Source: Tubiluchus corallicola
Lineage: Eukaryota > Animalia > Priapulida
Length of the DNA stretch: 64,000 nt
Direction: 5' to 3'
NCBI GenBank assembly: GCA_030141605.1
Contig: JAQGDQ010000767.1
Coordinates: forward strand, 35,566 to 99,565
Below the pieces are notes generated by a model that saw only the letters and a program-made list of their open reading frames with translations, made no database searches and was not told the origin of the DNA. A program made the translations under genes and the position numbers. Positions 5,691 to 40,700 of this stretch are shown piece after piece. Positions within the stretch are counted from its first letter, which is position 1. Every line of letters begins with the position of its first letter.

Positions 5691-5868
5691 GATGAAGAAA
5701 TTACGCAATCCTCCCTGTAGCGGAAAAATCTTTTAAGAAATTTTATACTGAACCTATCGATCTTTAATAGAATAACCAAAGTAAAGAATTAGTGTTGCTC
5801 CGGATATGTCATTCGTGTATCAGAAACAACATTAGTATCAATAACCTACAAGAACAGCTCTTCTTAAA

Positions 5869-9720: not shown

Positions 9721-10581
9721 AAACAGCTCTACCAACTGCGGATTGTGTTAGGTGTTTTGTATCAAATTTTTAATTTGTTGATTCTTTCCTTAATGTCTAG
9801 CATGTTTAATTTCGCTCTTATTCTATAGTAAGCGCAGTGAGTGGCCCTATTTCGCGATGACGTAAACGAAATAACGGCGATATCCCATATTGAAAAATAA
9901 CATCTCCTGAAGTTTGTTTTGGTTAGTTTGTTAACTAGAAAATAAAAATTATTTTTTGTTTTGTTGTTCGTTTCTTTGTTAGATGAAGTTTTGTAGGCGT
10001 TTGGTTGGAAAGTGACACGTGACTGTAATAATCGCCAACTTTCTTATCAATTTGGGTAAAGCAAAAAATAGCAAATTATTGGGACGTTATTTGTAGGGAG
10101 CTAGGGAGGGGCTTTTTTAATTTTTGTGAGAATCACTTCATGAGATTTTCGTTTGATTCGACAAACCAAATGTTTTGGTGGCCAATATTTAAATTTAAAT
10201 ATTTAAATAATAAATAAACTGTTACGAATGACATTATCAATTTTATGTCATTCGTAACACTAACAGTAACAGTTTATTTATTATAAGCAGTACTAACACT
10301 AATACACTGTAGCATAGCGCCTATAAAAAATGTTTATCACTAACGAAAGGGCAGCTGACTAGATGACCAATTGGTCTTTCGGTGCCCTTTCTTCACATTT
10401 TTGTTGCTAAATTAATTGTATTGTAATTGTGCGTGTGTTAAAAGACAAATAAAAGATTATTATTATTAGGTTGTGTTAAGATTTAGATATTTTATTTTTC
10501 TTTAAAATTTTACTCGTACACCTAGTTAAATGTGCGCTGTACGATTAATTCACGTTTCATAATCGTTTTTTGCTAGGAAAC

Positions 10582-10939
10582 ATGGGTGTTCACTGCTCTT
10601 TGGGATTAGTCATAACGTTCTTGTTCCTTGCAACATTAACGGCTGTTGTATCTTTCTTTGTGACTGAGTGGGGAGAATTTACTCTGGGAGGTAAATACGG
10701 TCTGTGGAGAGAATGCGCAGAAAGTTTGAGGTTCCAACTGTTTGCCAAAGATTGCCGATGGCTTTACAACTTTGAGCGATTTGGCGTTTATCGTGGGAGT
10801 ATTCCAGGTAATGTCTTAGGCTTAGGTGTTGAGCTTGCTCGTTTTTACTTTTGGATTTTTAATTTTTAATTGTTTCTTTTTTTATTATTGTTGTACATTT
10901 ACATCATGCTTTGCAATTAATACTTATGTAAGAGAAAGA

Positions 10940-10984
<45 letters not shown>

Positions 10985-13900
10985 AGGGAAAGCGAGAGAC
11001 ATGGAGGGAGAAAGAAAGAGAGAGAGAGAAAAGAGAGAAAGAGAAAGAAAGGGAGAGAACGAAAGAAAGAGAGAGAGAAAGAAAGAGAAAGAGTGTGTGA
11101 GAGGGGGAAAGACAGAGAGGGAGGAAAAGAGAGAGAGGGAAGGGAAGGACAGAGAAGAGAAAGGAGAGAGGGAGGGAAAGAGAGAAAGAGAGGAAACATA
11201 AGACGTTATTGAAACTTGTAGTCCGTTGGTTCAAGAATTATAAGTTTATCGATCTCTCGAGACCGAGACAAATATGGCCACAGCGCCAAGTGATTAACTT
11301 TCTAACATTGAAGGTCGTAAATCAGGAGAACGTTTAAACAATCTCTAAGAAATCTTATAAAAATACACAAAAGTTTAACCCGTGTGAGAGATCATGTTTC
11401 TCGTGAAGATTTCCCTCGACAGAACGAGTCTATCGGTTGAATTGCTAAACAATGGCTTCTTCAAAATATAATTCTATCTCAGGGGCTCTTGAAAAAGCTT
11501 TGGAAATTGGCTGCAGCTTTGCAGGTCCAGTAACTGGACATAACAACAGGGGGGCGTATTGACCAATGGAATAGCTCAGTTAGCAGCAAGCTGCTTACTT
11601 TCAATCTAAGAATATGTCGTTTATGCGTATTTAGGTTTTAACAAGTTCGACTCAAACTATCCGTCTTTGAACTTGCTGAACTCAAGATCGCGGATTGGAA
11701 ATGACGTCAATTCCACCATTTTGAATTTAAGATAGCAAATCGAAAATCCAACTCTCTCAGTCGATGCAGAATTCATTCTTATATATTTCTGTTGGATTTC
11801 ATTACGATTCGTTGCAAATTGGTGGAGCGTTAGGCTTCTTTTGAAAATGGTGTCATTGCGCCATCATCTTGAACTGAAAACGTCAGATCGAAAATCTAAT
11901 GTCGTCAGTAGACACGGAATTCTCTGACGTATTCTGTTGGAATTAACTGTGAAATAAAATAAATTCTAAATAAATTGAAATTCTTTCTAGTACATTTCTG
12001 TCAAACTTTATGACAATCTGTTGTGAACTGGCAGAACGTTAGACTTCTCTAATCAGTGTCGCTTTCGTTACCATCTTGATTTCAAAGTGAAGATTGAAAA
12101 TCCTGCTCTGTCAGTCGGTGCAGAATTTGTTCTTGTGTATCCTTTAAGGTTTCATGATGATCAACTGGGAATTGGTAGAGGCTTGGGCTTTCTTAAAAAG
12201 TTATGTTATCGCCAATCTTGAATTCAAGATGGCAAGTCAAAATTTTGACCCGTCAGTTAATGCAGAACTAGTATATTCACATGAAGTTTCGTGACAATTC
12301 ACTGCGAATTCGCGAAGCCTCAGGATTCCCCAACAACAATAGCAATAAAATCCAGAAGGGTAGTGATTTGGATTGAGTCGCTTGACCTAGAATTTAATAG
12401 TACCTGGTTTGTTCAAGTTTTTGTACAAGTCATTTAACACACATAGTTATGCTTATTAGTTTCTGTATTAATATTTGAGCATGTATTTTAGCACAGAGGA
12501 TGCTCCAACCCAGGGGTGTGCAAATTGTGGCCCGCCAAGAGAATTTGTGCGACCCGCGAAGAGATTTGTCAACCTAATGAAAGTGCGGCCCGGGCGATTA
12601 ATTGAGTGTATCCAGCTGAAGTCCGTGCCACGATCCCAAAGATAGTGCGGGTAGTTTTTTCTACTAGATCAGATGCCATTAACCCTTACAAGATGGTTGT
12701 AGCTTAATGTCGCGGTACTACACAGACTGTGTGATACACATTACTAATATGCATTGTAATGAAATTACCACTATCTGTCCTGAAAGTAGAAATATATGCT
12801 TTTGTAATATAAATTTTATTAACTTCTAAAATAGTTTCTTGAGTGTAGTAGTAATGATGTACGCAGGTCGGATGCAAAAAAATTGTTATTAGGTCTTTCT
12901 GTACTTGGCTCCTTGATCAAACTGCCTGTGGCCCGCAGGAATTGCGGAAAAGTTTAATGTGGCCTGGCTAGTCAGATAATTTGCACACCCCTGCTCCAAC
13001 CTAATGATTAACTCTTCTATCACTTTGTTTCCATGACAATCGTTTGAGTTGAGATCCGTTTCCACTGTTTCAGGATGAACAACACAAATTGATAACGTGC
13101 TTACATAAGTTGGTTAATTAATTAAACGGTTAATCAATTATTCTTTGTACATTTCAGCTTGGTTTATAGCTTGTCAAATCATGTTTACCATTTCCGTTGC
13201 CGTTCTCGTTGTCAACCTGTGTATACTCATGCCGTTCTACAGTTGCACTTGTGGAAAAGGAGGTGACTGCTTCCGCTGCATTGGAGTTGTCATTTACTCC
13301 TCGCTTCTCTGCACAGGTAAGCTTACACATTGCTTGCCTGCACTTTTAATTTACATTGAAAAATGTTCAGGGTCAAATTAACACTTTTCTATGTTTTTGT
13401 TGCAATTTGTTATTATTCATTGAATAAGTACTTAAAAGAGGCATCAGCTTATAACAGTTCATCCTTTTTATCATTAGATGTCGCCAAACTATGCATTTAT
13501 GTACTACAGTAAACTCCGCATAAGTCAAAATCGCATAACTCGAAGAATTTCAGAGGAACGGATGAAATCCTTCGTTCGTCTCACAAAAACGTCGCTTAAC
13601 TCAAAATTTTGCCCGATTCAAATGAGAAATTGTTGTCCATTTAATCAAAATACATGTAATTTACTTCACCTAACTCAAACTATGCGCATACTCAACCGCA
13701 GTAAGTAACACATTGGTAGCCACACTGTCACATTGTTTAACAGTGTTGTGTACGTGTCCTTTTGTAACATAAAAAAATCGTGTTTCACTACATAATTTGT
13801 TATTCTTTACGCAATTGTCATCAAATCTCGTCGTTTACGTATAGGAGAGTTGATTTTCCGCCTTCTATTTAGCTCGCTATCTGGAGGACGAGGTTAGAGT

Positions 13901-15741
13901 TTCTGCGCAGAAAAATACTCAACATCTCCTAACTCAAAATATCGCCTAGCTCAAAGTTTTATCAGTCTGGTTGAACTTGAGTTATACAGAGTTTACTGTA
14001 TGAGTAGCGTTGTTTAAATGAATGTGGTGTTGTGAACTAAAACTGGCACCTTTAATCAAATACTAAAGGGGGCGAAATGGAAATTTTAAAGAGAGTCCCA
14101 AGAAACTTTCTGTAAAAAGTTGTGTTAGTTACTATCATACTTATCTGCTTAACAAACTTGCATAGCAGGACAAGGCAATTCTTGATAGTTTAAAATGTTT
14201 GTCCCAAGTAATAAAACGTCACCGTTTCCTTATCCCGGTGGTCATCATTGGCTCACAAAAACACATTATTGATCTTATTGACAATGTGAATAAAGTAATT
14301 TAAACTTTCGCTTAGTTCACGGAGAGTGGCGCAAGGAATGCACTGATTACTTTTTCAAACTTTACGCAATGTTATCTGGACTTGTTTGAAATGACTTACC
14401 GCTAAAAAGGCTGCGCCTAACGGTCATCGCAGGTGTTTAAACTTTGAAGTTTTGTACAGTGTTACTACTAATGCAAACTCTGCAAGCAATGAGAACATGT
14501 AGGTGATATAAAATTTCATGACAAATTTTTTAAGGTTTACTTATGAATGGTGTTTTCTTGTCCTTTAACCCTTTCACTACGTAGTTGCTTTTTAACTGGG
14601 CCGCATTGGCTTTTGTATGTTTCACAATAACTTCTTGTGGTGTGTTACTAAAACACAATCTCGTACATAAACAAATAGCAATTTGTTATTAAACATTAAT
14701 ATTAAATACTAGTATTATTTATACATATGCGCACACATCTGCTGACACATACATGCACTCATGCACACACGCATGTGCACACCCATTTAAATAAGCACAT
14801 GCTTATATTTAGAGGCCAATTTTCACAAAAGACATAACACTAATCCATAAAAAGTGATAATTTTATAAGAAATGCAGAACAATCAACTAAACGTATGTTT
14901 CACCAACTATCAACAAACAATTTTGCGCGAGAATGTACTATACTGTACAGTATTGTGGAATGCACCTGGCTTCAGATGCTGATTGGCTGGTTAGTGTTAC
15001 TTGCTGCGAAGCAACACCAATCCCACGACTGTTGAAGTTTTCTACAAAATTTTTGCATGGTCGTAGCAGTGAAATTTTAGCAAAAAACTAAAACTATAAT
15101 ATGTAAACCTACTCCTATGACCGTCTCTCTCCAAACTGTTTTTAGCACTATCCTGTTCTTACTGACCTACCTAACTTTTCCTTTTTCACAATTATTAAAT
15201 AATTCTTTTCTCTCTAGTACAAACTACATTACTAACAATTGCCACGTGCCACTAGCTGGTCGGCTGCTGCTTTGCGATGTACTTCAGTACAACCTAAAGA
15301 CATGTGCTCGCACCTAGCATAACCTCTTTGGTTATCGCATTTCAAGGACCAATTTTTACATTGGTTTTCATAAACAATAAACACACCCAGGCGACCGTGC
15401 TTAGTAGAGAACTGAGGCGGCAGTCTACCACTTTCCGTCCCTTGCATGAAAAACACAGTGCAGAGTGAAAGGTTTAAACCGAAACCAAAATTCCTGCTTT
15501 CCGCATGTATTCACAAGCAAAGCTGTATTTATTTTCAGTGCTCGTCATGGGAATCTCCCTCTTAATCTTCGGTTTGGAAATTCACCTGAACAAATATTCG
15601 CAAGCGCTGAGAATGGGGACGATGCGTCGGACGCTGGGATGGGCGTACTGGATGATGGTCTGTTCGTGGGTGTTCACCGTGTCGTCGGTTGCCACCATGT
15701 TTGTCACGCACAAGCGAATAACTAATGTGGAAGAAGAATAG
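10582..15741 (+). CDS. Claudin/PMP22/EMP-superfamily tetraspan protein, paralogue B (195 aa, 3 coding exons: 10582-10807, 13158-13316, 15539-15741)
   Basis: Same exon phases and identical 159-nt middle exon as paralogue A. Motifs VTEW...KYGLWREC...DCRW, WFIACQIMFTI and LGWAYWMM. Acceptor gctag lies 5 nt before the ATG. Confidence 0.88.
10929..11196. repeat. (GA)n / purine-rich microsatellite
   Basis: Direct reading. Confidence 0.95.
11700..12320. repeat. Degenerate ~150-200-bp repeats with a ccatcttgaattcaagatgg-like palindrome (4 copies)
   Basis: Recurrent ccatcttga...aaaatcc...gtcagtcgatgcagaatt. Confidence 0.55.
12511..12993. mobile_element. hAT (Charlie-like) MITE
   Basis: TIRs caggggtgtgcaaatt / aatttgcacacccctg; perfect 8-bp TSD CTCCAACC; subterminal ggcccgc motifs. 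Confidence 0.88.
13507..13998. mobile_element. pogo/Tigger-like MITE
   Basis: TA|cagtaaactccgcataa ... ttatacagagtttactg|TA; internal taactcaaa motifs. Confidence 0.78.
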
Positions 15742-22339: not shown

Positions 22340-25300
22340 ATGTTGCGTAAGTTGCGTCGACACCCGGTATTGCTAGCTTTCTTGTACATTAGCTCAGTTC
22401 TTGTGATGCATAAACTCATTGCTGGCGACGTATCCATTCATATTAATGATAAGTTATTCATTGAAAAAAGGAGCGGCACATTGTCGAAAATTACCACCGG
22501 AATCACTATGCTAACCGCGCCTTTCAGCAGTTGGACTGTTCAGCCTCTTCAGCCTCTTCGGTTAGTTTTGACGAACTCAAAGCCAAAACGTGCCGACACT
22601 ATCATAATGATAGAGGCGACAAATACTACTACTCAAAATCACACCTTTGACGATGCAAAACGTTCCAATTTGGTTTCACCAGATGAGCCTCGGAAAGTTG
22701 TTTGTGGTAACAAGACTTTAATTGTGGAGTAAGTACTTAAAAATTACTAACATGCTTAAAACTTAGTAAAGCCCTGAAACCTAAAGTACTTATTAACATT
22801 TTACTGCTATAAGTGTTATGAGTGTGGAGAAAGTACTATTTAACTTTCTAGAACCCTTAATACTTACTAAAGCAGGGAAAACTTGTTAACATTTTACTGC
22901 TGTAAGTGCTGACGAGTGTGGAATAAGTGCCACTTAATTTACTAAAGTACTTAAAATTTACTAAAGTACGAAAACGTATTAACATTTTGCTGCTAGAAGT
23001 ACTATGAGTGTGGAGAAAGTGCTATTTAACATACTAAAGTACGAAAACTCATTAACATTTCATTGCTTTAAGTGCCGTGAGTGTGGAGCAAATGCCATTT
23101 AACTCACTAAACTACCGAAAATCATTAGCATTATTTTCTACTATAAATATCAATACTTTTTATAAACTTTGGTTACTGCAAACTGGAAGCCATAAGACAG
23201 TGACAGGGAATACTTCTTGTGGATGTTTGTAGCAGGGCCAGAATCTAGGTCGTTATCAAAACTAATCCTCTGAGATGAAACACTGAACCAACTGAAGAGT
23301 CTCAGCATTGTTCGGATATGAATGCATTGACGCATTGATGAATGGTTTTACTCATATCTTTGCACTTCGGGAAGAGTATCTTCGCACACAAATAATTATT
23401 TAGTGAAGTTATAATACAGGCTGTTCCAAAAGAAATAGCGCACTAACAAATGCTATAAGCAGGCTGCATAAGATTATGGATATCCATAAAATAAGACCAA
23501 AAATCCATAAAATAAAATTTCAAAAATCCAAAAAATAAGCTATTTTATTTATTTTATGCATATCCATAATCTTATGCACCCTGGCTATAAGCATACCTAT
23601 ATTACAGCATAGAGAATGCAGTAAGTCTGTATATTTCTCCAGGATATTTCTATAGTATTGCTTATTTTGGAACAACCTGTACGTAGAACGCATGAGCTTT
23701 ATAGAGCATTGCAATGAAAACTACTATGGCACCCAGTATTCATCTATATTTTTTTGCGATTTGTTCAGCTCATTTCTACTATAGCACTTCTTTTAGAACA
23801 CCCTGTAGGTAAAGTGTACAAGCTATGTAGAGCGTCGGAGTACCGCTTCTTTTAGAACACTGTGTGTAGAATATATAACGTAAACACCAGTCTGTGTGAA
23901 GTGTGTGAAGCAGCACCCCACTAATTTTAACTTACGAGCCGCCCCTGCCGTTGTGGAAGAAAAGTTTCTATTAAAAAGCCAGTTTTCTAGTCATTGATAC
24001 TCTGTGATTTCATTTCAATCATCAAATCTTTTTACTTCAGCCCAGTTCCGGGAGGTCCGGGAGACATGGGCAAGCCAATAATGACAAAGAAGGAGGAACT
24101 GACGCCCGAACAACGTCATCTCTATAATCGCGGCATAGCCAAAAATGGTTTTGATGAGTATTTGAGTGACCAGATATCTTTACGTAGGCGTTTACCTGAT
24201 ATGCGACATCCAGAGTAAGTTAGTACTAGTTTCTTGCTTGTCAGGGGAAGTAAATTGCTATAATTACATTGTAATTTCTTAATTTTTACTTTATATAGTA
24301 ATGCATTTTTTGGATTTACTATTGCGCTTGACTAAGCTGTTCATGAGCCATAGATATAATAACACCTTGATTAGTGAACTCGTTGGGCAAGTTTAGGGGA
24401 TGGAGCAGAATGGAGCAAAAGAGAGTTGTCAGATTAGCAGAAAGCGAGAATTCTGGCGCGGAAATTTGTTCCTTTATTTTGTTATGAACTACTTGCTTTT
24501 ATATTAAACTTTTGTGAATTTGTACCCAAGAAGTTAGAAGTATGTCAGCTCTACAAACTGTAACATTACTCCTTTTTGTCTTAAATTTCAATGGTTTCCA
24601 CTATACCATCATTGCCACCATTCATTCGTTACAGCCATCATAATCTTGTGAACTTATTAAAGCAAATGAGGCCAACATGATTAACGGCAGCAACGCGGTC
24701 ATATGTTTATCAACTGAAGGTGCTTTTGTGGTGTTATTTTTAGCTGTTTGAAGCAATCCTACGTGAAGAACTTACCCACGGTCAGCGTGATCATTGTATT
24801 CCACGAGGAGGCGCTGTCTGTTTTACTGCGGACCGTACACAGCGTCTTGGACAGATCTCCGGCTGACATCCTACACGAGATAATACTTGTAGATGATTTT
24901 TCTAAGAGAAGTAAACCTTAAATTTCATTTTTTGTAAAAAGAATGTAAACAGTCCATATTACTATGTGTATATGCATATATATCCATAAACGTTGGTTAT
25001 TGTTGTGACCATTTTATGCACTTTGGTGTGATATAAACGAAGCTGTAATTCAGCATTTAGCATTTTTGCTGGGAAGTAAATAGATCTTTTCTTAAAGAGT
25101 TAAACAGCCAGAATCGGCACGGCGAGTTAAACTTTCCAGAGTAAGTATTTAAGTTAGGTTGTCACCAACTATTCACTCACCAGGTTTAATTTTGGTCACA
25201 GTGAACACTTGGCTGTATACCCCGTCTTATGCCAGCTGTTGTTTTTTGCTTAATGCATTGATATTGTTGTTGCAACTCCTACTGTTGAAATCACTGTCAT

Positions 25301-28300
25301 GGAAATCACGACAAGTGGACGGTCTGGCATATTGCCAGCTGTGACAGCAGCAACAATGGCAACAATATAAACAAGAGCTTCCGTTACTGAGGCCATTGTG
25401 ACAACCTGCTAAATGTGTAGTACCAGTAGACAATGTGACTCTGAGTATCTTGAAGTATTTGTTTCTAAACTTGGTAGTAAATATTGTCACTGTGAGTATA
25501 GGAGAGTATTGGTTTCAAAACCAGTTTCTTACCAGCAAAAATCTTTGCATCTTATTGGTATAGATTTTTGTCTTAATTATGTGCTGATTAGTATTGGCTA
25601 AAACATATCTTGAAACGTGGTCTTGACATTTGTTCTACTTTGTACAGGAAAAACTTAATTTTGCTGTGCCTGGTAGATACGTTGTCGCCTGTTTTCCTCT
25701 CTTTCCGAGGAGCTATAAAATTTCCTCCGAGATCCCCACCAAGCACCTCTAGGTCGTTTTTAGATGGAGTAAAATTAGACATTTCTGGAGGTTTTGCTCG
25801 CTGTTCTCAGAGAAACTTCCTCCAAAAAAATGTCATAACAGTCTATAGGGGGTCTTGGAGAGAAACTCATCGATCTTTGGAAAGAGGAGAAATCGGGCCA
25901 TGTGATGAAGTGGATCTCTTTTACCAGGATGAAAGGCTTGGGGTTAGATTTGGGGAAAGTCTTTCTCCGGATTACTCTGTAATTTATTTGAACTTGAATT
26001 GTTCTTTCATTATCTGGTGACAGAGAGCTGCTACTTTTTACAGGTCATACAAACAAACCCCTGGAAGAATATGTGAGTACGATGAAAAAAGTAAAGATTG
26101 TCAGAGCGAGCAAAAGAGAAGGTCTTATTCGAGCTCGGCTAATAGGAGGGAAACATGCCTCGGGAGAAGTCCTAGTCTATCTGGATTCACATTGCGAGTG
26201 TACAGAAGGTAAGCTTCTCTTGAGTAGTTATCTGTTCGGGTATTTTTGTTGGCTAATCACGTGGTCTAGAGGGCAGATCGTTCACTTCACTCTTAGGAAA
26301 TTTTCTCTATACTTGTTTTGGAGGTGTAACTTTGGGTGTGGTTTGCATTTTTGTAGTCAGTTTGATTGTTTGTCATTAAAGGAAACTTTTTTCATGGTTT
26401 TTGACAATGTCCAATTGACAATCGTATCTTATACAGGTTGTACCTAAAATTTTGCCAAAGGTTTACATCATTTAGCAAACGTCTTAATGCATATGTAGTC
26501 TAGATAGCTTTTGTCTTTTTTAGATATACATTTTAAGATTTTTTTTGTTCTTTTTTTAGTTGAGGAAATTTTTAAAGTTTGGTCTATACAGTGTTCCCTC
26601 ACTTATGGCGGTGTTCCATTCCAGGCCCACCCGCGATAAGTGAATTTCCGCGATGTAGGGACGCTATACTCATTTAATACTTACAGTTTTGGATGGCATC
26701 GTAGGGTTTGAATAAATTCTGTCTCTAACAAAAATTTCACAAATAGCGTACAAGAAAACAAATTGCAGGGTACCTCAGCCAATCAGCGACTGGGATACAG
26801 ATCAGCATTATCTGGTTGGTCGCTTTCCATCAATCAACCAATTGTGTGTTGTGTACAATCTCACGTCGGTACGTAGCGTCTCAAGCGGGCGCAAGTACTA
26901 CATTTCGTTTTTGATGTGTATTCATCCGCCGAATAAATACACTATTTACTGTAACTGATAATGCTTCATACAGACAGAAGAAGTGTAAAATCGTTTAGCT
27001 TCTACCGCACGAGTTTTTTCCTGCAGGCTGGCTTCCAGCACTTATTGACCCCATCGCGCGGAACAACCGGACCGTTACCGTTCCCGTCATTCCCGTCATT
27101 GGTACTAAAGACTTTGCTTTCGAAAATTCAGCACTTCCAGAGAACATTCAGGTGGGAGGCTTTGCCTGGACACTCATTTTCAACTGGCATGTTTTGCCAC
27201 CAGGGGAACAGCAGCGCCGGGTTTCTGAAGGCCTTACAAGCGTCGACCCAATCAGGTACGCCAAAATTTAGTGGTCCTTTTATTCATTACAATGGAGAAG
27301 GACGATAGGTGAACAAATTTAGTGAATTAAATTGTAATTGGATGAGTATAAATTTTACTGATCTGTAAGGATTAGATAAGGAAACGATAGTGTTAAGATC
27401 TCTTATGTTCGTAACCAAGATGTAGAGTTTATAGTAAAACTAGTAGACTTATAGGAGTTCACGCCAAATTGACCAAGGATTAAAAACCCTTACACTATTT
27501 AAAGAGGTGCACTTTCTCAGTGCTTCCATAATGCGTGGATTTTTTTTAAGTTCGCGCAGTGTATCTCCTGTATCTTGCATGTTAGGACTCAAAATAATGC
27601 ATACAATCAACATCAGAGGTAGTATAAAACAGACAGAAATTTTATTATAAGAACAAGGTATAAAATTATCTTAAAAAATTTTAACATCAGCTAAAATTCG
27701 AATAAGTTTTGCTTTTAACGGCCTTTCCAATTGTAACGACGGGTTTACGCTAGTGAGTTTTCACTTGTGAACACTCCCTGAGAGTAAACTCAGCAATTCT
27801 CAGAAAGTTTGCAAAAACTTGCCGACACAACTCGCAGAGTCCGCGATAAACTTGCGAGCTTCTGGTCAGAGGGAAAACTCACGAGAGAAAACTGTCTAGT
27901 CTAAACGCGCCATTAGTATGATGAGCAAGATTACATTGGTGTGCATTATGCGTATTATTTGAGACTTAATGAGTGCCAAGCTGATTGGCAAAGTTTGATT
28001 GGTAAGGGTAAGTTCATACTGGGTACCTTGAATGCATTTTCTCATGCATGGAGGCTTTGGTCGCATGTTTGCATGTTAAATGTACCCAATACTAACGTAT
28101 TGTGGGAGACGGTACTCGATAGTAATGTATTATGGGAGACGGTACCTAATACTAACGTATTATGAGAGACGGATCCCAATACTAACGTTTTATGGGGGAC
28201 AGTACCCGATAATAACGTATTATGGGGGACGGAGCCCGATACTAATGTTTTATGGGAGACGGTACCCAATACTAACGTATTATGGGGGATGGTACCCAAT

Positions 28301-31300
28301 ACTAACGTATTATGGGGGATGGTTCCCGATACTAACGTATTATGGGGGACGGTACCCGATAGTAACATATTGTGGGGGACGGTACCCGATACTAACGTAT
28401 TATGGGGGATGGTTCCCGATAGTAACGTATTATGGGAGACGGTACCCGATAGTAACGTATTATGGAGGATGGTACCCGATAGTAACGTATTATGGGGGAT
28501 GGTACCCGATAGTAACGTATTATGGGGGATGGTACCCGATAATAACGTATTATGGGGGATGGTACCCGATAGTAACGTATTATGGGGATGGTACCCGATA
28601 GTAACGTATTATGGGGGATGGTACCCGATAGTAACGTATTATGGGGGACGGTACCCGATAGTAACGTATTATGGGGGATGGTACCCGATAGTAACGTATT
28701 ATGGGGGATGGTACCCGATAGTAACGTATTATGGGGGATGGTACCCGATAGTAACGTATTATGGGGGATGGTACCCGATAGTAACGTATTATGGAGGACG
28801 GTACCCGATACTAATAGCATATCCAGAGTAGCATACTTGGGAATACCTGGAAGTGGCGTCCTCTCTCAGATGTCTTTTGAAACTGTCGACTGACGAAGCA
28901 TTGATGATTGATGACAGCCTCAATGCCCAAAGAAGTGAGATCTGATGTTGGTTCTTGCTTTTTGCACAAATAACTTTAACTCATGACCAAGAAGAACTCT
29001 GTGAGGTCTGGAAAAAGTCTATCTCTGTCAGAACAGTGTTTCCACTAATTATTTTGAAGCAGTTCAACAAGGTCAGAACAGTGTTTCCACTAATTATTTT
29101 GAAGCAGTTCAACAAGGTCAGAACAGTGTTTCCACTAATTATTTTGAAGCAGTTCAACAAAGTCAGAACAGTGTTTCCACTAATTATTTTGAAGCAATTC
29201 AACAACGTCTACAGTCTCACGCGTCTGCTGAAGTGAAATCCAATTGCTTGATCATGCCAATACAACGGTTTGCTTTTGCAATGATGTGGTCACATGGGAA
29301 TTCCATTTGAAGTCATTGGAAATCATTACTTCCAAGTCTGTGATACATATTTCTTCAGCCATTTGAACATTATTTAGAACACAGACTGTTGTTAGCATCC
29401 TGCTCGGAAGACAATGGAGTGTGTGCCAAGAGAGTCAGTTGTTGATCACATTGATGGAGCTGCAGCGTCGACTGTGGCTGAGCAGTCTGATCCTTGAACG
29501 GCAGTTAGACAGCCGTAATTGCTGCCTTCCGTGTTGTTTCTGCCACTGAAACTGTGACACTGGAGTGGCCTCACGCCTGGGCAAGGTGTATGGAGATCCT
29601 GAGTTGCCCAGACAACAGGAACCCCCTCTCTTCCTCCCTGGTGTAGTCCAAAGGAAAGCTGAGCGATATGTTTGGCACCAGGTTGGCTGCAGGAGCTGCC
29701 GGAGTCAGTGAGCATGCTGCACTAGTCCGCCTTCGGGGTTCCACTCCTGATTTGGAAAGTTTACTCCTCAACACATGTCCGTTGGGTCACTTGACCTCCT
29801 CCGGCCTCTGGCCGTTGGCTGCTTGTGCAGCTCCTCCTCCACCTAGTGTCGAGATACAGTGTCCAGATCCGGCAGGCCTACAGCACCTGGTATTCCTAGG
29901 CGATCACCCATCCAAGTACTAACCAGGCTCCACGTTGCTTAACTTCGGTAATCAGAGAAGAATCGGCATTTTTAACGTGATTTGGTCGTAGAACACAGAC
30001 TACAAGGTACCTAACAAAATTGTGTTTGTTGCAACAAGCTACTACAAGTGCCATAGGCCTACTGTTTTCTTAAACATTCATAATTTTTACACTTTTCCAA
30101 TTTCTCTATATTTTTAGGATGGTTGCCATCCCTACTGAGTCCAATAAAAGAGAATCACACCACTGTGACAATTCCAATAGTGGAAATGATAAATCCGCTC
30201 ACTTTCTCCGTCTATCCGACTCCTCCAGATTATATCCGCGTTGGTGGATTCGGCTGGGATTTGATTTTTCACTGGCACAAGATACCTCTCCGGGAAAAAA
30301 TGCGCCGTGAAGGAAAAGGGGAAAGTTATCCCATTAGGTAGGCTTTCCCTCTTTCTTACAATTTGGCATCCCGGAACTGAACACTTCATAGTTAGAAAAG
30401 TTGCGAGCCAATCAAGATTTGAACTCGGAGCCTTGCAATTAAACTCTACCGCATAAGCTACTGGTTTAACATTACAGAGTATGTATGAAATCTCATGCTA
30501 GTAATACGCAGTCAATCAGCGCCACCTGTCCACAGTGTGGTGAAACTGATTTGACTTATCACACTTCATTATCTGAGTAATTGAGTAATGGGCGGCTAAT
30601 ATGAGCACGTTAACTTTGTTTTCGTTGCATGCAACTCTTCTAATTTTTTAAGTTCTTTTCCTTTAATCGCTATTTATTTCATTGCACGCGGTTTTTGTTT
30701 TTTCACCACGTGTTTTTCATTTTGAAATTGCGATTTTTTATTACTAGCGGCATGTGTTTATATGGAACTGTTTTTTTTTCTTTATTTTGTCAAGCAATAA
30801 TGGTGGTTATGTTTGGCATGCAGTTCAATTTCCGTATTTTTGCTTGCATACGTTATGCATTTTTATAACTTGACAAGACAGGTGTTATAATTTTCTGCAT
30901 TCATCTTGCATATTCTGGGACGCATGTTGGGTTGCATTGCAGTATAGGCTGCATCTGAATGAAGCTTATGCGTGCAGGTAAGTTGAAGCTGAAGAGAGAA
31001 AGAGTAATTTTTTCCTAGCCAAAATTGTGACATTTTCCGGTGACTTTTTCCTGTGAGTTTATTACAGGTTGGCCCGCTCAAGGGCAAATGCATTTGACCT
31101 TTGCTTGACCGTTACTTGACACATTGAAATTTTTTGTCTTTTTCATTGTTCTTGTATTTTTAGATTTAGCAGCTAATGCATTTGACCTTTGTTTGACCTT
31201 TACTTGACACATTGACATTTTTTTGTCGTTTTCTTTGTTCTTGAATTTTTAGATTTAGCACTAAATGCATTTGACCTTTGTTTGACCTTAACTTGACATT

Positions 31301-34300
31301 GACATTTGTCGTTTTCTGTGTACTTGTACTTTTAGATTTAGCACTAAATGCATTTGACTTTTGTTTGACCTTTACTTGACACATTGACATTTCCTTTGTC
31401 ATCTTCTTTGTTCTTGTATTTTTAGATTTGCACAAATGATGCAAATTAATTTAGTTAAAGGAACTTATGACTAAGTCAATTACGCTTTTTCAGAAGTCCT
31501 ACCATGGCAGGCGGTCTGTTTGCAATAAACAAAAAATGGTTTGAAACTTTGGGAACTTATGATCCGGAGTACGATGTCTGGGGTGGCGAAAATTTGGAGT
31601 TGTCTTTTAAGGTAAGATAAACTGAGGTTGTGTTAAAGCGTTCACATCATTTAAGGTCTTAGAATACCTTACTTTTTATGATGAGTTAATGCAGTGTTCA
31701 CATTCACATTAAAAACAGTGTTTTCTCATGTTTGAGAGAGGAGACAACTTCAGACAGCCGTGCTAGCAATGCAGTGAATGTTAAATTATACACTGCATGT
31801 TATTAAAATGCTAATTCACCATCAATCAAAATTTGCTAAGCAAATCTCCTGTACTGCAGAAAGATGTTCACTCACCTGGTAAACCACGTAAGTATTGATT
31901 GTACGGTGATTGAATGGTTGTTGAGATGCATAACTATTTAAAAATGCACATTTTTTATACCGTTTGCCATTCTGCCTGCTCAGGTCCAACCCTTAAGAAC
32001 AGGATGCTGCTTAATGTAGGCATTCAGGGTAGTTATCATGTGAAGTTTTTCAAATGAAGTACTGAACACGTAGAACAAGTGGTATGCTGTGTGAAGCCAT
32101 CCAAAAGCAGTTCTTTGCAATCACCGGTCTAGATTTTTAGATTTAACAGCAAATGCATTCGACCTTTGTTTGACCTTTACTTGAGACCATTGACATTTCC
32201 TTTGTCGTCTTTTTTGTTCTTGTATTTTTAGATTTAACAGCAAATGCATTTGACCTTTGTTTGACCTTTACTTGACACCATTGACATTTCCTTTGTCGTC
32301 TTCTTTGTTCTTGTATTTTTAGATTTAACAGCAAATGCATTTGACCTTTGTTTGACCTTTACTTGACACCATTGACATTTCCTTTGTCGTCTTCTTTGTT
32401 CTTGTATTTTTAGATTTAACAGCAAATGCATTTGACCTTTGTTTGACCTTTACTTGACACCATTGACATTTCCTTTGTCGTTTTCTTTGTTCTTGTATTT
32501 TTAGAATTAACAGCAAATGCATTTGACCTTTGTTTGACCTTTACTTGACATCATTGACACTTCCTTTGTCGTTCTCTTTGTTCTTGTATTGCAGACGGTA
32601 ATTGAAAACATTAATTAACTAAAAATACCATTTTCAAATCTAAAGCTACAACTCTAGTCTCTTTTATTTTTGATGTTGCAGGTCTGGATGTGCGGCGGGT
32701 CATTGGTCACGGCTCCGTGCTCCCATGTGGGCCATATTTACCGTTCGAAGTCGCCTCACACTTGGCCAGAAGGCACAAACTACTTCCGTAACTTCGTACG
32801 ACTAGCCGAAGTGTGGCTGGACGAGTACAAGCAATATTTCTACGAGTATGTGCCGAGTCAGGTGAGATATTGTGTTGTAGTTTGTGGTTGGCTGCATCCT
32901 GGAAGTGGTGCTGACGAGACAAAAAATTACTCAGCAATTATTTGATTCTATTGTGTGAAAGTGTCATTTGGAAAACAGACTTCTTATGGAAAACAGACTA
33001 ACTTTTGAGTAAAATGTTGTCTTTTGTCTGGTGTCAATTTCAAAGATTTTCTGTAATAGGCAAGTTGTTCAGGCAAGCATACATGTAAAGCACAGATCCT
33101 ATGAAACATGTAGAGCCTTTCCATAACTTGCATTTTCTTACATTTGTTGTTTTAGCGTGTAGGAGTAACTGACGTGGCACAACCGTGCTTGCGTTGTTTT
33201 TGAGAATTGCTAATTAATTTACACCCTGTGCATCTGTGTGTGTGCTTAATTTTATTTGTAATAATCCATATAAGTTGGAATTGCCACAGTTTACAATAAA
33301 ATAAATAATTCCCAGTTTTTTTCCGGCAAAAATACATTTATCATCCCCAGGGTAAATGGACTACCTTCAAATGTCGTTATGACTGCGGCCTGAGCCCTTT
33401 ATAATGCTAACCTTGCTTAGAAACCCTCCACTTACATAAAACATTTAAGTCTTTCCAGCAGGTAAGTGAAATGCTGAGTAATATAACTTTGGATGAAAAG
33501 TGTTTTGGGACATAATTTAACATTTCCTTTTCTTTCCCTGATTTACGTGGCGTAGTGACGTCATGTAATGGTGCCGTCGTAACAATATTGTGGAAGATTT
33601 AAAATGAAAACAAACAAAAATTCCTTTGAATGCAAATACGATATGTGCATGAAATTGCTGTAAGATTGTAGTACAATTTTTTAAGGCGAATTTTTTGAAA
33701 CCTACTTCAGGTACCCCTTTTCTTGTCCTTTAATTTTCGTCAAAAGAAAGTGTCTATATATGTAGACAGTTTGTTTTGCCGAAAATCTGAGCGCTAAGCG
33801 AGGTTGGCATTATGAAGGTGGAGGGAGGGGGAGGGGGGGGAGTGTATGCGTTGTGCATTTTCTATTTAAAACAGACGGACTTTTTTCCACTGTTGCAGAT
33901 GAAATTTACTGAAAACTGTTTTTAGGTGAAAGAGATAAACTATGGTGATATTTCATCACGATTAGCCATACGCAAACGTTTGCAATGTAAGAACTTTGAC
34001 TGGTTTATGAATAACGTGTGGCCAGAAAAATTCCATCCTGGAAAATCTGTGTATTCCGGTTGGGTAAGTTCCGGTAGAGTTGCTTTTCAAAATTCAAGGT
34101 CTTTCGTATTTAAAATGATTTAACTCCAGATATGAGACAAATAAGTTGAAACATCTTTATTTTGCCAACCGGAACAGGAAGCCGTTTTTGCTATGAAAGC
34201 TGAAAAGGGCCACAGCTCTTTGTGTAACTAGGTTAATTTAATAACCATTTCTTACATACTATGCAAACTTCTGTAATTTTCAGAAGTTGTTTATAATGTA

Positions 34301-34898
34301 CCAGCGTTTTAATTTACCAACTAAACAATTAGTATTGTACAAGTAATTAAAGTCTTTAATTATGTCTTTACACATTACTTTCATATAAAATTATAGAAAA
34401 AATGGAGCCTATTATTTTTCCCATCTTGCTGTAGTTTTCTTTTTACATGTGTTTTCTTTCTGTGACTTTTTTACCTGTGACTTTTTTACTTCTGACATTC
34501 TTACCTGTCACTTTTTTCCTGTGACTTTTTTACCTGTGAAATTGGTAGTTGTCAAGTTGATTACTCGTATTAAAAATGGTTTTTATAAAAAGTTAAATAA
34601 TTTTACAGCTGAGAAATCACATTAATGATGGAAGTTCAGATGCCTGTTTAGACAGCTCTGATTCCCAGGCTTATCATGGAAAAGCCATGAGATTGTGGCC
34701 TTGTCATAATCAACGTGGCAATCAGGTAAGATGTTCACATGATTGTTCTTACTGATAAAATTGCTACTCCTAATAACAGTCATTTTGTATTATGTAATAA
34801 AAGTTCCATTTCAACAAGTTTTGGACACTAGAGTTTGTTATAATGAATTTTGGATATAGCGAACTATTTTTGATTCTTGTTTGTATTAAAAAATGAGA

Positions 34899-34962
<64 letters not shown>

Positions 34963-37900
34963 GGAGGGAGAGACAGCTGAAAATACAACTTGGCAGCAAA
35001 AGGAATGAGTTTTGGACGCTCAGTCTCTTGACAGAATTCAATTACCGGTTGTTTTGTCATTGACTACAAATGTGAATTGTGCACCAGCCTTTAGTTTATT
35101 TGAACAGTGTGAACGCTATTTCTACTGATGTATGTAATTTGTCTGGAGAAGATGACCTCAGTTTGCCTTTCCTTGCAGCTTTGGCATCTTACAAGAGACG
35201 GTGAATTGCGCAGGGAGGAGTCGTGCATGGACGCAGGACCAGAACACATCATGATGAATCAATGTCATGGTCTTCGCCACAATCAGTACTGGATTTACAA
35301 CAAATTGGTAAGTTTGACTCAACAAGGCTTACATTGTAGCCTGAGTAGCTGAAAATATGCGAGTAGATATGGTATTTATTTAATACCTGAAGTTAAGCAA
35401 CACCAAGCCTGATTAGTGAAGGAACTAATGATCGCCACATTCTGTCTGCGACACTGATTGTATCTTCTTAGGAGGATTTGTACATTTGTGTCTAAGATAT
35501 TTAATACCTGAAGTTAAGCAACACCAAGCCTGATTAGTGAAGGAATTGATGATCTAGGCGGCTCCTTGCTACGCTGATTTTGACTTCGTGGGAGGATTTG
35601 TACAAATGTGTCTGAGACATTTAATACCTGAAGTTAAGCAACAACAAGCCTGATTATTGAAGAATGGATGATCTAGGCGGTTCGGTTTGCTACACTGATT
35701 TTGGTTTCTTAGGAGGATTTGTACAAATGTGTCTGAGACATTTAATACTTGAAGTTAAGCAACACCAAACCTTAGTGAAGGAATGGATGATCGCCACATT
35801 CGATATTTGCTCTAGGCTGTTCTGTTTGCTACACTGATTTTGGCTTTCGTACCTGTTTGCAGCTTCTCATTCCTCTTAGGTCATGACCTTCGTACCTGTT
35901 TGCAGCTTCTCATTCCTCTTAGGTCATGACCTTCATACCTGTTTGCAGCTTCTCAATCCTCTTAGGTCATGACCTTCGTACCTGTTTGCAGTTTCTCAAT
36001 CCTCTTAGCTCATGACCTTCATACCTGTTTGCAGCTTCTCAATCCTCTTAGGTCATGACCTTCGTACCTGTTTGCAGCTTCTCAGTCCTCTTAAGTCATG
36101 ACCTTCGTACCTGTTTGCAGCTTCTCAATCCTTTTAGGTCATGACCTTCGTACCTGTTCGCAGCTTCTCAATCCTCTTAGGTCATGACCTTCATACCTGT
36201 TTGCAGCTTCTCATTCCTCTTAGGTCATGACCTTCGTACCTGTTTGCAGCTTCTCAATCCTCTTAGGTCATGACCTTCGTACCTGTTTGCAGCTTCTCAA
36301 TCCTCTTAGGTCATGACCTTCATACCTGTTTGCAGCTTCTCAGTCCTCTTAGGTCATGACCTTCATACCTGTTTGCGGTTTCTCAATCCTCTTAGGTCAT
36401 GACCTTCGTACCTGTTTGCGGTTTCTCAATCCTCTTAGGTCATGACCTTCGTACCTGTTTGCAGTTTCTCAATCCTCTTAGGTCATGATCTTCGTACCTG
36501 TTTGCAGTTTCTCAATCCTCTTAGGTCATGACCTTCGTACCTGTTTGCAGTTTCTCAATCCTCTTAGGTCATGACCTTCTTACCTGTTTGCAGTTTCTCA
36601 ATCTTCTTAGGTCATGACCTTCGTACCTGTTTGCAGTTTCTCAATCCTCTTAGGTCATGACCTTCGTACCTGATTGCAGCTTCTCAATCCTCTTAGGTCA
36701 TGAACTTCGTACCTGTTTGCAGCTTCTCAATCCTCTTAAGTCATGAGCTTCGTACCTGATTGCAGCTTCTCAATCCTCTTAGGTCATGACCTTCGTACCT
36801 GTTTGCAGCTTCTCAATCCTCTTAGGTCATGACCTTCGTACCTGTTTGCAGCTTCTCAATCCTCTTAAGTCATGACCTTTGTACCTGTTTGCAGCTTCTT
36901 AATCCTCTTAGGTCATGACCTTCGTACCTGTTTGCAGCTTCTCAATCCTCTTAGGTCATGACCTTCGTACCTGTTTGCAGCTTCTCAATCCTCTTAAGTC
37001 ATGATCTTCGTACCTGTTTGCAGCTTCTCAATCCTCTTAGGTCATGACCTTCGTATCTGTTTGCAGATTCTCAATCCTCTTAGGTCATGACCTTCGTACC
37101 TGTTTGCAGCTTCTCAATCCTCTTAGGTCATGACCTTCGTACCTGTTTGCAGCTTCTCAATCCTCTTAGGTCATGACCTTCGTACCTGTTTGCAGTTTCT
37201 CAATCCTCTTAGGTCATGACCTTCGTACCTGTTTGCAGCTTCTCAATCCTCTTAGGTCATGACCTTTGTACCTGTTTGCATCTTCTCAATCCTCTTAGGT
37301 CATGACCTTCGTACCTGTTTGCAGTTTCTCAATCCTCTTAGGTCATGACCTTCGTACCTGTTTGCAGTTTCTCAATCCTCTTAGGTCATGACCTTTGTAC
37401 CTGTTTGCAGTTTCTCAATCCTCTTAGGTCATGACCTTCGTACCTGTTTGCATCTTCTCAATCCTCTTAGGTCATGTCCTTCGTACCTGTTTGCAGCTTC
37501 TCAATCCTCTTAGGTCATGACCTTCGTACCTGTTTGCAGTTTCTCAAACCTCTTAGGTCATGACCTTCGTACCTGTTTGCAGCTTCTCAATCCTCTTAGG
37601 TCATGACCTTCATACCTGTTTGCAGCTTCTCAATCCTCTTAGGTCATGACCTTCACACCTGTTTGCAGCTTCTCAATCCTCTTAGGTCATGACCTTCACA
37701 CCTGTTTGCAGCTTCTCAGTGCTCTTAGGTCACGACCTTTGTACCTGTTTGCAGTTTCTCAATCCTCTTAGGTCACGACCTTCGTACCTGTTTGCGGCTT
37801 CTCAGTGCTGTTAGGTCATGACCTTCGTACCTGTTTGCAGCTTCTCAATCCTCTTAGGTCATGACCTTCGTACCTGTTTGCAGCTTCTCAATCCTCTTAG

Positions 37901-38832
37901 GTCATGACCTTCGTACCTGTTTGCAGCTTCTCAATCCTCGTAGGTCATGACCTTCGTACCTGTTTGCAGCTTCTCAATCCTCTTAGCTCATGACCTTCGT
38001 ACCTGTTTGCAGCTTCTCAATCCTCTTAGGTCATGACCTTCGTACCTGTTTGCAGCTTCTCAATCCTCTTAGGTCATGACCTTCGTGCCTGTTTGTAGCT
38101 TCTCAATCCTCTTAGGTCATGACCTTCGTACCTGTTTGCAGCTTCTCAATCCTCTTAAGTCATGATCTTCGTACCTGTTTGCAGCTTCTCAATCCTCTTA
38201 GGTCATGACCTTCGTACCTGTTTGCAGATTCTCAATCCTCTTAGGTCATGACCTTCGTACCTGTTTGCAGCTTCTCAATCCTCTTAGGTCATGACCTTCG
38301 TACCTGTTTGCAGCTTCTCAATCCTCTTAAGTCATGACCTTCGTACCTGTTTGCAGCTTCTCAATCCTCTTAAGTCATGACCTTCGTACCTGTTTGCAGC
38401 TTCTTAATCCTCTTAGGTCATGACCTTCGTACCTGTTTGCAGCTTCTCAATCCTCTTAGGTCATGACCTTCGTACCTGTTTGCAGTTTCTCAATCCTCTT
38501 AGGTCATGACCTTCATACCTGTTTGCAGCTTCTCAATCCTCTTAGGTCATGACCTTCACACCTGTTTGCAGCTTCTCAATCCTCTTAGCTCATGACCTTC
38601 GTACCTGTTTGCAGCTTCTCAATCCTCTTAGCTCATGACCTTCGTACCTGTTTGCAGTTAATTTACCATTTTATGCTTTCAGACTCTTGCGCTGTACCAC
38701 CCAGAAAGTAACAAGTGTCTGGAAGTGAAGCCAGATCGGAGGAACCTCCTGATGGCAGAATGCTCTGCGATGCCTCAGCAACAATGGCAGGTTGAAGCCA
38801 GCGGATGGAGAAATAATCCGTTAAATAATTAA
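22340..38832 (+). CDS. GALNT: Polypeptide N-acetylgalactosaminyltransferase (GT27 plus ricin-type lectin), about 651 or 648 aa. Exons 22340-22728, 24041-24214, 24744-24910, 26044-26208, [27027-27255 or 30118-30337], 31494-31611, 32682-32861, 33926-34063, 34609-34725, 35179-35307, 38683-38832
   Basis: N-terminal TM plus stem; GPGDMGKP; [13 protein letters not shown]...LLRTVHSV...EIILVDDFS; REGLIRARL; DxH motif LDSHCEC; [11 protein letters not shown]; [17 protein letters not shown]; CSHVGHIYR; [10 protein letters not shown]; three lectin repeats (CLD..NQLW, CMD..NQYW, CLE..QQW). All junctions are GT-AG and phase-consistent. Exact orthologue not assignable by eye. Confidence 0.95.
22790..23140. 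repeat. Degenerate ~90-bp tandem repeat x4
   Basis: ttaacattttactgct..aagtg...gagtgtgga recurs. Confidence 0.65.
23417..23678. mobile_element. Tc1/mariner-type MITE hosting the nested hAT MITE
   Basis: TA|caggctgttccaaaa ... ttttggaacaacctg|TA. Confidence 0.7.
23460..23583. mobile_element. hAT-type MITE, 124-bp internally deleted copy of the same family
   Basis: Same TIRs as 4375-4882; perfect 8-bp TSD GCTATAAG. Confidence 0.88.
26589..26950. mobile_element. Tigger-like transposon end (partial)
   Basis: TA|cagtgttccctcacttat...ccgcgataagtgaatttccgcgat; matching right TIR not found. Confidence 0.45.
27027..27255 (+). CDS. GALNT: GALNT coding exon 5a (alternative catalytic-domain exon)
   Basis: ctgcag|...|gtacgc, 229 nt, phase 1 to 2. 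Encodes [77 protein letters not shown]. Confidence 0.9.
27741..27911. mobile_element. Short palindromic MITE remnant
   Basis: Imperfect TIRs ggtttacgctagtgagttttc / gaaaactgtctagtctaaacg. Confidence 0.45.
28082..28813. repeat. 30-bp minisatellite (gtacccgatagtaacgtattatgggggatg, ~24 copies)
   Basis: Direct periodicity; lies between GALNT exons 5a and 5b. Confidence 0.95.
29027..29205. repeat. 45-bp tandem repeat x4
   Basis: gtcagaacagtgtttccactaattattttgaagcagttcaacaag. Confidence 0.95.
29440..29873 (-). mobile_element. GC-rich body following the 5S head (possible retroposon 5'UTR-derived SINE body)
   Basis: Abrupt GC-rich block contiguous with the 5S 3' end. Motifs such as GGAGTAAAC...GGAGTGGAACCCCGAAGGCGG and CTCCATACACCTTGCCCAGGC resemble, from memory and unverified, RTE-clade 5'UTRs. 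Confidence 0.45.
29874..29993 (-). pseudogene. 5S rRNA-derived sequence (120 nt), probably the head of a SINE3-type element rather than a functional 5S gene
   Basis: Reverse complement reads TTCTACGACCAAATCACG...CCGAAGTTAAGCAACGTGGAGCCTGGTTAGTACTTGGATGGGTGATCGCCTAGGAATACCAGGTGCTGTAGGCCT. Single copy, several substitutions, no oligo-T terminator. Confidence 0.85.
30118..30337 (+). CDS. GALNT: GALNT coding exon 5b (duplicate alternative catalytic-domain exon)
   Basis: ttttag|...|gtaggc, 220 nt, phase 1 to 2. Encodes [74 protein letters not shown]. Confidence 0.9.
31085..31428. repeat. ~90-bp tandem repeat, upstream block (4 copies)
   Basis: aaatgcatttgacctttgtttgacctttacttgacac...ttcttgtatttttagattta. 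Confidence 0.9.
32130..32590. repeat. 91-bp tandem repeat, downstream block of the same family (5 copies)
   Basis: Same unit as 31085-31428, on the other side of GALNT exon 31494-31611. Confidence 0.92.
34894..34975. repeat. (GA)n microsatellite
   Basis: Direct reading. Confidence 0.95.
35380..35850 (+). repeat. ~120-bp tandem repeat x4 containing a 5S internal-control-region-like segment
   Basis: ctgaagttaagcaacaccaagcctgattagtgaaggaatggatgatcgcc compared with the 5S copy in this window, ccgaagttaagcaacgtggagcctggttagtacttggatgggtgatcgcc. Confidence 0.8.
35846..38657. repeat. 43-bp minisatellite (cttcgtacctgtttgcagcttctcaatcctcttaggtcatgac, ~65 copies)
   Basis: Very homogeneous array filling the last GALNT intron. 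Confidence 0.97.
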
Positions 38833-39090: not shown

Positions 39091-40700
39091 CAGTCAACTT
39101 TGGGTATAAGGGACACCTCGGGACCATCAAAAATCGTCCCTTATAGCTCAACTTCGGATATAAAGGACACCTCGGGACTGAAAAAAACCGTCCCTTATAT
39201 AGCTCAACCTCGGAGATAAAGGACACCTCCGGACCTGAAAAAACCATCTCTTATAGCTCAACCTTGGATATAAAGGACACCTCGGGACGGGAAAAACCGT
39301 CCCTTATAGCTCAACCTCAGATATAAAGGACACCTCGGGACCGGAAAAAACCATCTCTTATAGCTCAACCTTGGATATAAAGGACACCTCGGGACCGGAA
39401 AAACCGTCCCTTATAGCTCAACCTCAGATATAAAGAACACCTCGGGACCGGAAAAAAACGTCCCTTATAGCTCAACCTCGGATATAAAGGACACCTCGGG
39501 ACCGGAAAAAAACGTCCCTTATAGCTCAACCTCGGATATAAAGGACACCTCGGGACCGGAAAAAACTGTCCCTTATAGCTCAACCTCGGATATAAAGGAC
39601 ACCTCGGGACCAGAAAAAACTGTCTCTTATAGCTCAACCTCGGATATAAAGAACACCTCGGGACCGGAAAAAACCGTCCCTTATAGCTCAACCTGGGATA
39701 TAAAGGACACCTCGGGACCAGAAAAAACTGTCCGTTATAGCTCAACCTGGGATATAAGGGACGCCTCGGGACCGGAAAAAACCGTCCCTTATAGCTCAAC
39801 CTCGGATATAACGGACACCTCGGGACCGGAAAAAACCGTCCCGTATAGCTCAACCTCGGATATAAAGGACACCTCGGGACGGGGAAAAAACCGTCCCTTA
39901 TAGCTCAACCTGGGATATAAAGAACACCTCGGGACTGGAAAAAACCGTCCCTTATAGCTCAACCTGGGATATAAAGGACACCTCGGGACTGAAAAAACCG
40001 TCCCTTATAGCTCAACCTCGGATATAAAGGACACCTCGGGACCAGAAAAAACTGTCCGTTATAGCTCAACCTGGGATATAAAGGACACCTCGGGACCGGA
40101 AAAAACTGTCCGTTATAGCTCAACCTGGGATATAAAGGACACCTCGGGACCAGAAAAAACCGTCCCTTATAGCTCAACCTCGGATATAAAGAACACCTCG
40201 GGACCAGAAAAAAACTGTCCGTTATAGCTCAACCTGGGATATAAGGGACACCTCGGGACGGGGAAAAAACCGTCCCTTATAGCTCAACCTCGGATATAAA
40301 GGACACCTCGAGACCAGAAAAAACTGTCCCTTATAGCTCAACCTCGGATATAAAGACACCTCGGGACCGGAAAAAACCGTCCCTTGTAGCTCAACCTGGG
40401 ATATAAAGGACACCTCGGGACGGGAAAAAACTGTCCCTTATAGCTCAACCTTGGAGTTTGCCGAAAAATTGAGGTTAAAAATCGATCAATTTCGCTTTGA
40501 TCATAGGGTCCCTTATATACGAGGTAATTTATCTGTTTTTCTATTACGCGGGACCTGAAGATATCGTCCCTTATAACCGAAAGACCGTTACATCCGAGTA
40601 CCTTATATACGAAGATCTTCAGATAGGAAAAGCGTTACGAAAAATCAGGACTGGTGTTGGTGGCGCTTATAAGCGAGTACCTTATACCCGAGGTTGTCTG
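39091..40700. mobile_element. pogo/Tigger-like MITE inflated by an internal ~60-bp tandem array (about 39095-40455, ~22 copies)
   Basis: TA|cagtcaactttgggtataagg ... ccttatacccgaggttgtctg|TA. The unit ctcaacctcggatataaaggacacctcgggaccggaaaaaaccgtcccttatag is a copy of the left terminus. Confidence 0.8.

Follow-up and report, generated by a model that had tools for sequence, protein, structure and literature searches.

Two diverged copies of the peptide-groove exon, likely spliced as alternatives, in a GalNAc-transferase gene of the priapulid Tubiluchus corallicola

Introduction

Splice variants of the polypeptide N-acetylgalactosaminyltransferase (GalNAc-T) GalNAc-T13 have been published, and the mutually exclusive exons of Caenorhabditis elegans gly-5 and gly-6 encode a lectin repeat. 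The subject of this study is a GalNAc-T gene of Tubiluchus corallicola in which the exon lining the acceptor-peptide groove is present in two versions, 5a and 5b, that are likely used as alternatives. The gene lies in a stretch of 64,000 nt (contig JAQGDQ010000767.1, positions 35,566 to 99,565 of the forward strand), termed the window below, in whose own coordinates all positions are given.

In Drosophila, an either-or choice at exon 8, which encodes the lectin alpha repeat, constitutes a specificity switch between PGANT9A and PGANT9B (PMC6115407), in agreement with the first-pass annotation of this DNA, which had stated that PGANT9 splicing varies the lectin. The same statement about Drosophila PGANT5 was wrong: splicing of PGANT5A/B alters the flexible loop and helix-turn-helix of the catalytic domain, residues 398-457 (bioRxiv 10.64898/2025.12.22.695686). 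According to this 2025 preprint, acceptor specificity is changed by charge, which was shown by assay and rescue. Since PGANT5A and PGANT5B differ in a catalytic loop, a catalytic splice switch of GalNAc-T specificity is already published, in another exon. Exons 9a/b/c of gly-5 and 8a/b of gly-6, measuring 102-111 nt, are experimentally confirmed as mutually exclusive (PMC4165533), and GALNT13/Pgant5/gly-5 is listed among the families with convergent tandem exon duplication (PMC9741552). No paper on alternative versions of the groove exon was found in searches whose coverage of subscription journals was poor; as far as could be searched, the cassette is visible in automatic annotations of other animals and apparently undescribed in the literature.

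Exon duplication and reading frame

The gene extends from 22340 to 38832 on the + strand and comprises eleven exon positions, located by tblastn with full-length homologues and by border scanning. The fifth position is occupied by two exons, 5a (27027..27255) and 5b (30118..30337). Their positions, AG/GT ends, phases (1 to 2) and open frames were confirmed as first annotated, as were the lengths of 229 and 220 nt, both of them 3n+1. The prediction that inclusion of both copies or of neither would break the frame was borne out by joining the exons. Together with the ten other exons, 5a yields a protein of 651 amino acids (aa) and 5b one of 648 aa, each without a stop; a message containing both meets a stop at codon 439 and one containing neither at codon 310. 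The frame is therefore kept when exactly one copy is included.

The exons had also been described as homologous and strongly diverged, and their peptides proved to be 44% identical (30/68; pairwise E 3e-21). A profile built from 83 homologous segments detected exactly two copies in the window, scoring 61.8 (5a) and 57.1 (5b) bits, and no third; the next best score was 1.3 bits. No second copy of any other exon of the gene was found within the window, nor any DNA similarity between the introns flanking 5a and those flanking 5b. The intron between the copies measures 2862 nt and all ends are GT-AG. Steric or U2/U12 exclusion is ruled out by the length of this intron and by the GT-AG ends throughout. 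As regards a docking and selector system of the Dscam type, no arm pairing with the flanks of both exons was seen in the 25 listed of 33 inverted repeats.

A contig of DNA run X1, which may be the source sample, spans exon 5a with its flanks. No exon-exon joints were found in this run, which behaves as DNA contigs; from run X2, three short low-identity pieces could be placed, none of them on an exon. A word-index search of 5a and 5b against longer proteins gave no match, which is weak evidence, and HMMER gave 915 relatives.

A full-length match to 5S ribosomal RNA (29875-29993, - strand; 75.1 bits, Rfam RF00001) precedes the 5b acceptor by about 125 nt, and in the adjoining stretch at about 29330-29800 the X1 word depth is thousands of times the single-copy level. 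Match and high-depth stretch together are likely a 5S-headed repeat of SINE3-like type or a dispersed 5S unit.

Residues of the acceptor groove

The acceptor-peptide residues of GalNAc-T2 include Val255, Leu270, Phe280, Trp282 and Tyr284, and Phe280, Trp282 and Phe361 form its Pro-x-Pro pocket (PMC4432651; PMC6994419 agrees). Exons 5a and 5b both align to GalNAc-T2 from residue 233 according to the HMMER ranges. Counted from this anchor and the GGF motif, not from a structural alignment, the equivalents of V255, L270, F280, W282 and Y284 are V, Q, F, W and V in 5a and M, R, F, W and K in 5b. All five residues thus fall in exon 5, F280 and W282 being kept in both copies and the other three differing. 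The claim that the exon lines the acceptor groove and holds its F-x-W is thereby upheld for F280/W282 and widened to V255, L270 and Y284. The greater basicity claimed for 5b also holds, the net charge of the loop past F-x-W being -1 in 5a and +3 in 5b. At the position equivalent to D254, 5a has a proline. In exon 7, which is constant and common to both isoforms, a tyrosine (HVGHIY) stands at the Phe361 position of the proline pocket.

Selection on the two copies

Comparison of 5a with 5b over 72 codon pairs shows 36 identities at position 1, 52 at position 2 and 18 at position 3, a pattern from which it follows that the exons are not chance open frames. Fourfold sites are identical at 3 of 16; pS (the proportion of differing synonymous sites) is 0.89, which is saturated, and dN (nonsynonymous divergence) is 0.55. 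In columns conserved at ≥90%, the family consensus is matched at 24 of 32 positions by 5a and at 20 of 32 by 5b, and in the remaining columns at 5 and 7 of 39. As splice sites, the two acceptors score 7.1 and 5.5 and the two donors 7.3 and 6.7, inside the spread of nine constitutive sites. In a neutral simulation run without indels, frame and AG/GT survived one substitution per site in 3 (5a) and 6 (5b) of 3000 replicates, and 0.1 substitutions per site in 1002 and 874 of 3000. Recent abandonment of one copy is compatible with the simulation, since about a third stay open at the lower distance.

The paralogue comparison and the conservation of the family indicate that both copies have been under purifying selection, because conserved columns are kept at 44% identity and with saturated silent sites. 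The supposition that both are under selection thus found support in dN, silent-site saturation and conserved columns between the paralogues.

The same segment in other animals

The arrangement is no peculiarity of this genome: public gene models of oyster and insects already show it. In Crassostrea virginica, five RefSeq isoforms (X1-X5; XP_078320782 to XP_078320790) of one GalNAc-T5-like gene are the same everywhere except in exactly the groove segment, where they share 38-59% identity. The proline of 5a also occurs in isoform X3, whose 640-aa protein lies on a 2068-nt Logan contig. The AlphaFold model of X3 has a predicted local distance difference test score of about 87-98 over the cassette; its alignment consisted mostly of canonical rows and it is not counted as support.

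Among insects, the psyllid Cacopsylla has six full versions of the segment, with a seventh in an incomplete protein, Cryptotermes has three, and Zootermopsis, Periplaneta, Planococcus, Macrosteles, Homalodisca and Anabrus have two each. Gene models of Blattella, two Timema, Diaphorina and the shrimp Halocaridina contain two to five copies fused in tandem. The oyster and insect clusters were picked for looking variant and carry no information on frequency. Across the series of these relatives the V255 and L270 equivalents vary freely and F and W are invariant; the oyster and insect series each keep one canonical member of the CPVID type, and the present gene has none. In termite and cockroach pgant9 models (P0082/P0080/P0081, P0138/P0139/P0031 and P0167/P0028/P0165/P0166), the groove and lectin alpha exons both switch, which would permit combinatorial isoforms.

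Of 80 loci on metagenome contigs, 39 reach from exon 4 to exon 6, and in 17 of these 39 exon 4 is followed by an intron. Genomic tandem copies were found in L008/L009, L037 and L067 (two each) and in L080 (three). Nine incomplete loci have at least one copy, those with more being L008 and L009, which share the same peptides, and L080. The three L080 copies, of 214, 217 and 217 nt, are flanked by AG and GT and have the ends and phases of 5a and 5b. A 615-aa protein (P0162) lies on a 2290-nt Logan contig, most probably a spliced transcript. The protein agrees at 100% with the second L008 copy and with the exon that follows, as against 62% with the first copy; it thus skips the first copy and uses the second. 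Exclusive use of the groove exon in relatives is in this way corroborated by the oyster and insect isoform sets and by P0162 set against L008.

The closest relatives of 5a (52% and 46%) are the Logan singletons P0172 and P0176, each on a 959-nt contig. If these were to prove to lie on one contig, they would represent a related animal with two adjacent copies.

Origin of the copies

In trees of the groove segment, which rest on 49-70 columns and leave many forks open, 5a and 5b fall in one starred group (95/87; 98/94) with Logan, JGI and ENA sequences, apart from the oyster and insect variants. This separation suggests that the groove exon was duplicated independently in different lineages. A sister relation of 5a and 5b gave p 0.355 in the approximately unbiased test. 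Orthology of either copy to an oyster or insect variant is unsupported in the trees.

A wider proposal, on which we find the balance to be even, is that the groove exon is a recurrent hypervariable cassette, which independent duplications in several lineages of animals have multiplied into arrays of two to seven and through which splicing would reprogramme O-GalNAc targets; in this gene the canonical version would be gone and both remaining copies specialised.

Interpretation and alternatives

The two exons are likely ancient duplicates spliced in a mutually exclusive manner, giving two enzymes that share metal site, flexible loop and lectin and differ in the groove; we put the probability of this reading at roughly 0.75. 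The groove exon would have been duplicated long ago into two copies, and regulated choice of 5a or 5b would then give rise to two Golgi enzymes with different grooves. Messages containing both copies or neither would presumably be cleared by nonsense-mediated decay, as the stops at codons 439 and 310 have exon junctions downstream. Both isoforms would retain the F-x-W proline pocket, with surroundings differing at the V255, L270 and Y284 equivalents and in loop charge. Since the groove residues (M/R/K as against V/Q/V) and the loop charge differ, 5b may prefer acceptor sequences that are more acidic, or less basic, than those preferred by 5a.

Several points weigh against mutually exclusive splicing into two enzymes of different specificity. 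RNA of this organism was not found, and both exclusive splicing and the different acceptor-peptide preference of the isoforms are predictions. The RefSeq isoforms are automatic models, and the insect cassette is shorter, ending before F-x-W (at WNLQ). Two of the 17 intron-bearing exon 4-6 loci, among which many single-copy ones are near-identical repeats of one kind, have two copies, and duplication is therefore not universal. Both 5a and 5b are without the Cys and Asp of the canonical CPVID type, a loss with which one or both copies could encode a weak enzyme. Finally, within 389 bases of 5a and its flanks, the X1 contig departs from the window at 19 letters and has 4 gaps, more than the 4 and 2 departures per roughly 250 bases on the X1 contigs over exons 2 and 3; selection on 5a may be relaxed in the X1 sample.

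In a first alternative, both exons would be spliced one at a time, with one isoform inactive or nearly so and acting as a lectin-bearing decoy or regulator, or with isoforms that differ in rate and stability and not in peptide preference. The proline of 5a at the D254 equivalent, the absence of the family Cys from both copies, the tyrosine of exon 7 at the F361 position and the long branch formed by the whole gene (1.73 changes per column) all lean that way. Against them stand the metal and donor residues, which are intact in the constant exons, and the F280/W282 equivalents, which are present in 5a and 5b alike. The same proline occurs in oyster X3, whose 640-aa protein is carried on its 2068-nt contig, and the Cys is also missing from sequences of the nearest group (P0173, P0175 and P0182), whose type of locus (L018, L024, L064) has a single copy. 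An inactive isoform, or a difference confined to rate and stability, is considered unlikely.

A slightly poorer prospect is that one copy was functional until recently and is now silent or rarely used, so that a single isoform is made. This would agree with the missing RNA, with the stronger divergence of X1 at 5a as compared with exons 2 and 3, and with the simulation, in which an abandoned exon often stayed open at 0.1 substitutions per site. Both copies, however, have good splice sites, equal family scores and preserved conserved columns, and the extra copies of relatives occur in isoform models and transcript-like contigs. That the second exon is part of another copy of the gene, or an artefact of assembly or of haplotypes, is very improbable: the introns are repeat-rich, but the window holds no other duplicated exon, the flanks are unrelated, silent sites are saturated unlike those of any haplotype pair, an independent contig of X1 (the possible source sample) runs through 5a and its flanks, and the same layout was found in other animals.

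Gene structure and neighbouring sequence

Judged by its sequence, the gene is an intact, complete GalNAc-T of the PGANT9/gly-5 type. Exon 1 (22340..22728) carries the ATG, a hydrophobic, membrane-anchor-like stretch and the stem, and was delimited by its open frame, GT donor and in-frame join; inspection of the sequence showed basic residues followed by the hydrophobic stretch at the N-terminus. Exons 2 (24041..24214; stem end and start of the catalytic domain) and 3 (24744..24910; GT1 region, with a stretch of 17 residues) were placed by tblastn, for exon 2 with pgant9-type proteins, and by in-frame joins. Exon 4 (26044..26208) is the DxH (DSH) metal-binding exon, ends in phase 1 and matches Pfam PF00535 at 39.7 bits.

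Beyond the groove exons, tblastn and in-frame joins likewise placed exon 6 (31494..31611; SPTMAGG and WGGEN, the Gal/GalNAc-T motif), exon 7 (32682..32861; third metal histidine and flexible loop, single copy) and exon 8 (33926..34063; end of the catalytic domain and linker). Exon 7 corresponds by position to the region spliced in Drosophila PGANT5. The features of the GT-A fold, supported by the PF00535 match, all lie in constant exons (DSH in exon 4, WGGEN in exon 6, HVGH in exon 7), as do all metal and donor residues. Exons 9 (34609..34725; lectin alpha repeat, single copy), 10 (35179..35307; beta repeat) and 11 (38683..38832; gamma repeat and stop) encode a C-terminal ricin-type lectin as successive thirds of PF00652; their scores are 21.9, 29.3 and 21.3 bits, that of exon 10 being the only one above the curated cut-off when taken alone. 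All exons are on the + strand.

Among solved GalNAc-Ts, the best match of 5a and 5b is PGANT9 (PGANT9A/B; E 3e-10 and 2e-10), and named matches of the DxH exon are mostly pgant9 or GalNAc-T5-like proteins (best 120 of 436). A catalytic tree from constant exons puts the gene together with pgant9-type proteins, inside a starred group of 27 rows; this tree is midpoint-rooted and, the gene being a long branch, the placement is loose.

The window contains 53 tandem-repeat rows. A 121-nt unit in 3.5 copies (35378-35792) resembles degenerate 5S by eye and is not reported by Rfam at the gathering threshold. One satellite fills 35846-38657 in the last intron (43-nt unit x 65) and another lies just downstream of the gene at 39094-40455 (54-nt unit x 25). 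Two divergently oriented paralogous genes at 976-5732 (-) and 10549-15738 (+), with two coding pieces each (59% and 45% identical), gave weak claudin-like matches, PF06653 being below cut-off. At 49038-49601 (-), an open frame of 188 codons has a 7-residue repeat (QAERSKP-like) and PPPY motifs and is without a convincing Pfam match.

Significance and comparison with known systems

The choice of acceptor sites by GalNAc-Ts is a long-standing question, usually approached via paralogues that differ everywhere. The versions described here form natural swap series, some 70 residues of the groove being replaced while the rest of the enzyme stays the same (two versions here, five in oyster, six or more in the psyllid); the contribution of the segment is therefore directly assayable, and the series may guide the engineering of GalNAc-T specificity. 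The groove exon would be a third splice-switched region beside the two described in flies, the lectin alpha repeat and the flexible loop, and GalNAc-T gene counts would understate the enzyme repertoire of many invertebrates.

The C. virginica isoforms resemble the present case in that one gene varies a segment that begins and ends at the same points (from WLxP to the PI/PV in front of RSPTMAGG) and is otherwise identical. They differ in having five versions, one of them canonical, whereas the two found here are both non-canonical, and 5a and 5b do not group with the oyster copies. The insect pgant9 sets share with this gene the phase-1 acceptor behind the DxH exon, where the versions begin, and the variation of the V255 and L270 equivalents; in contrast, F-x-W and the following loop are constant and most sets also switch the lectin alpha exon. 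The C. elegans genes gly-5 and gly-6 differ in that their exclusive exons are 3n in length, are partly excluded by very short introns and, by size, are not the groove exon. PGANT9A/B belongs by best match to the same subfamily as this gene, in which the lectin alpha exon switched in the fly is single. PGANT5A/B, like the arrangement proposed here, shows alternative splicing within the catalytic domain of a GalNAc-T; it is, however, a GalNAc-T1 orthologue with modest changes in the flexible-loop region, whereas in T. corallicola the versions concern the upstream groove exon and share 44% identity.

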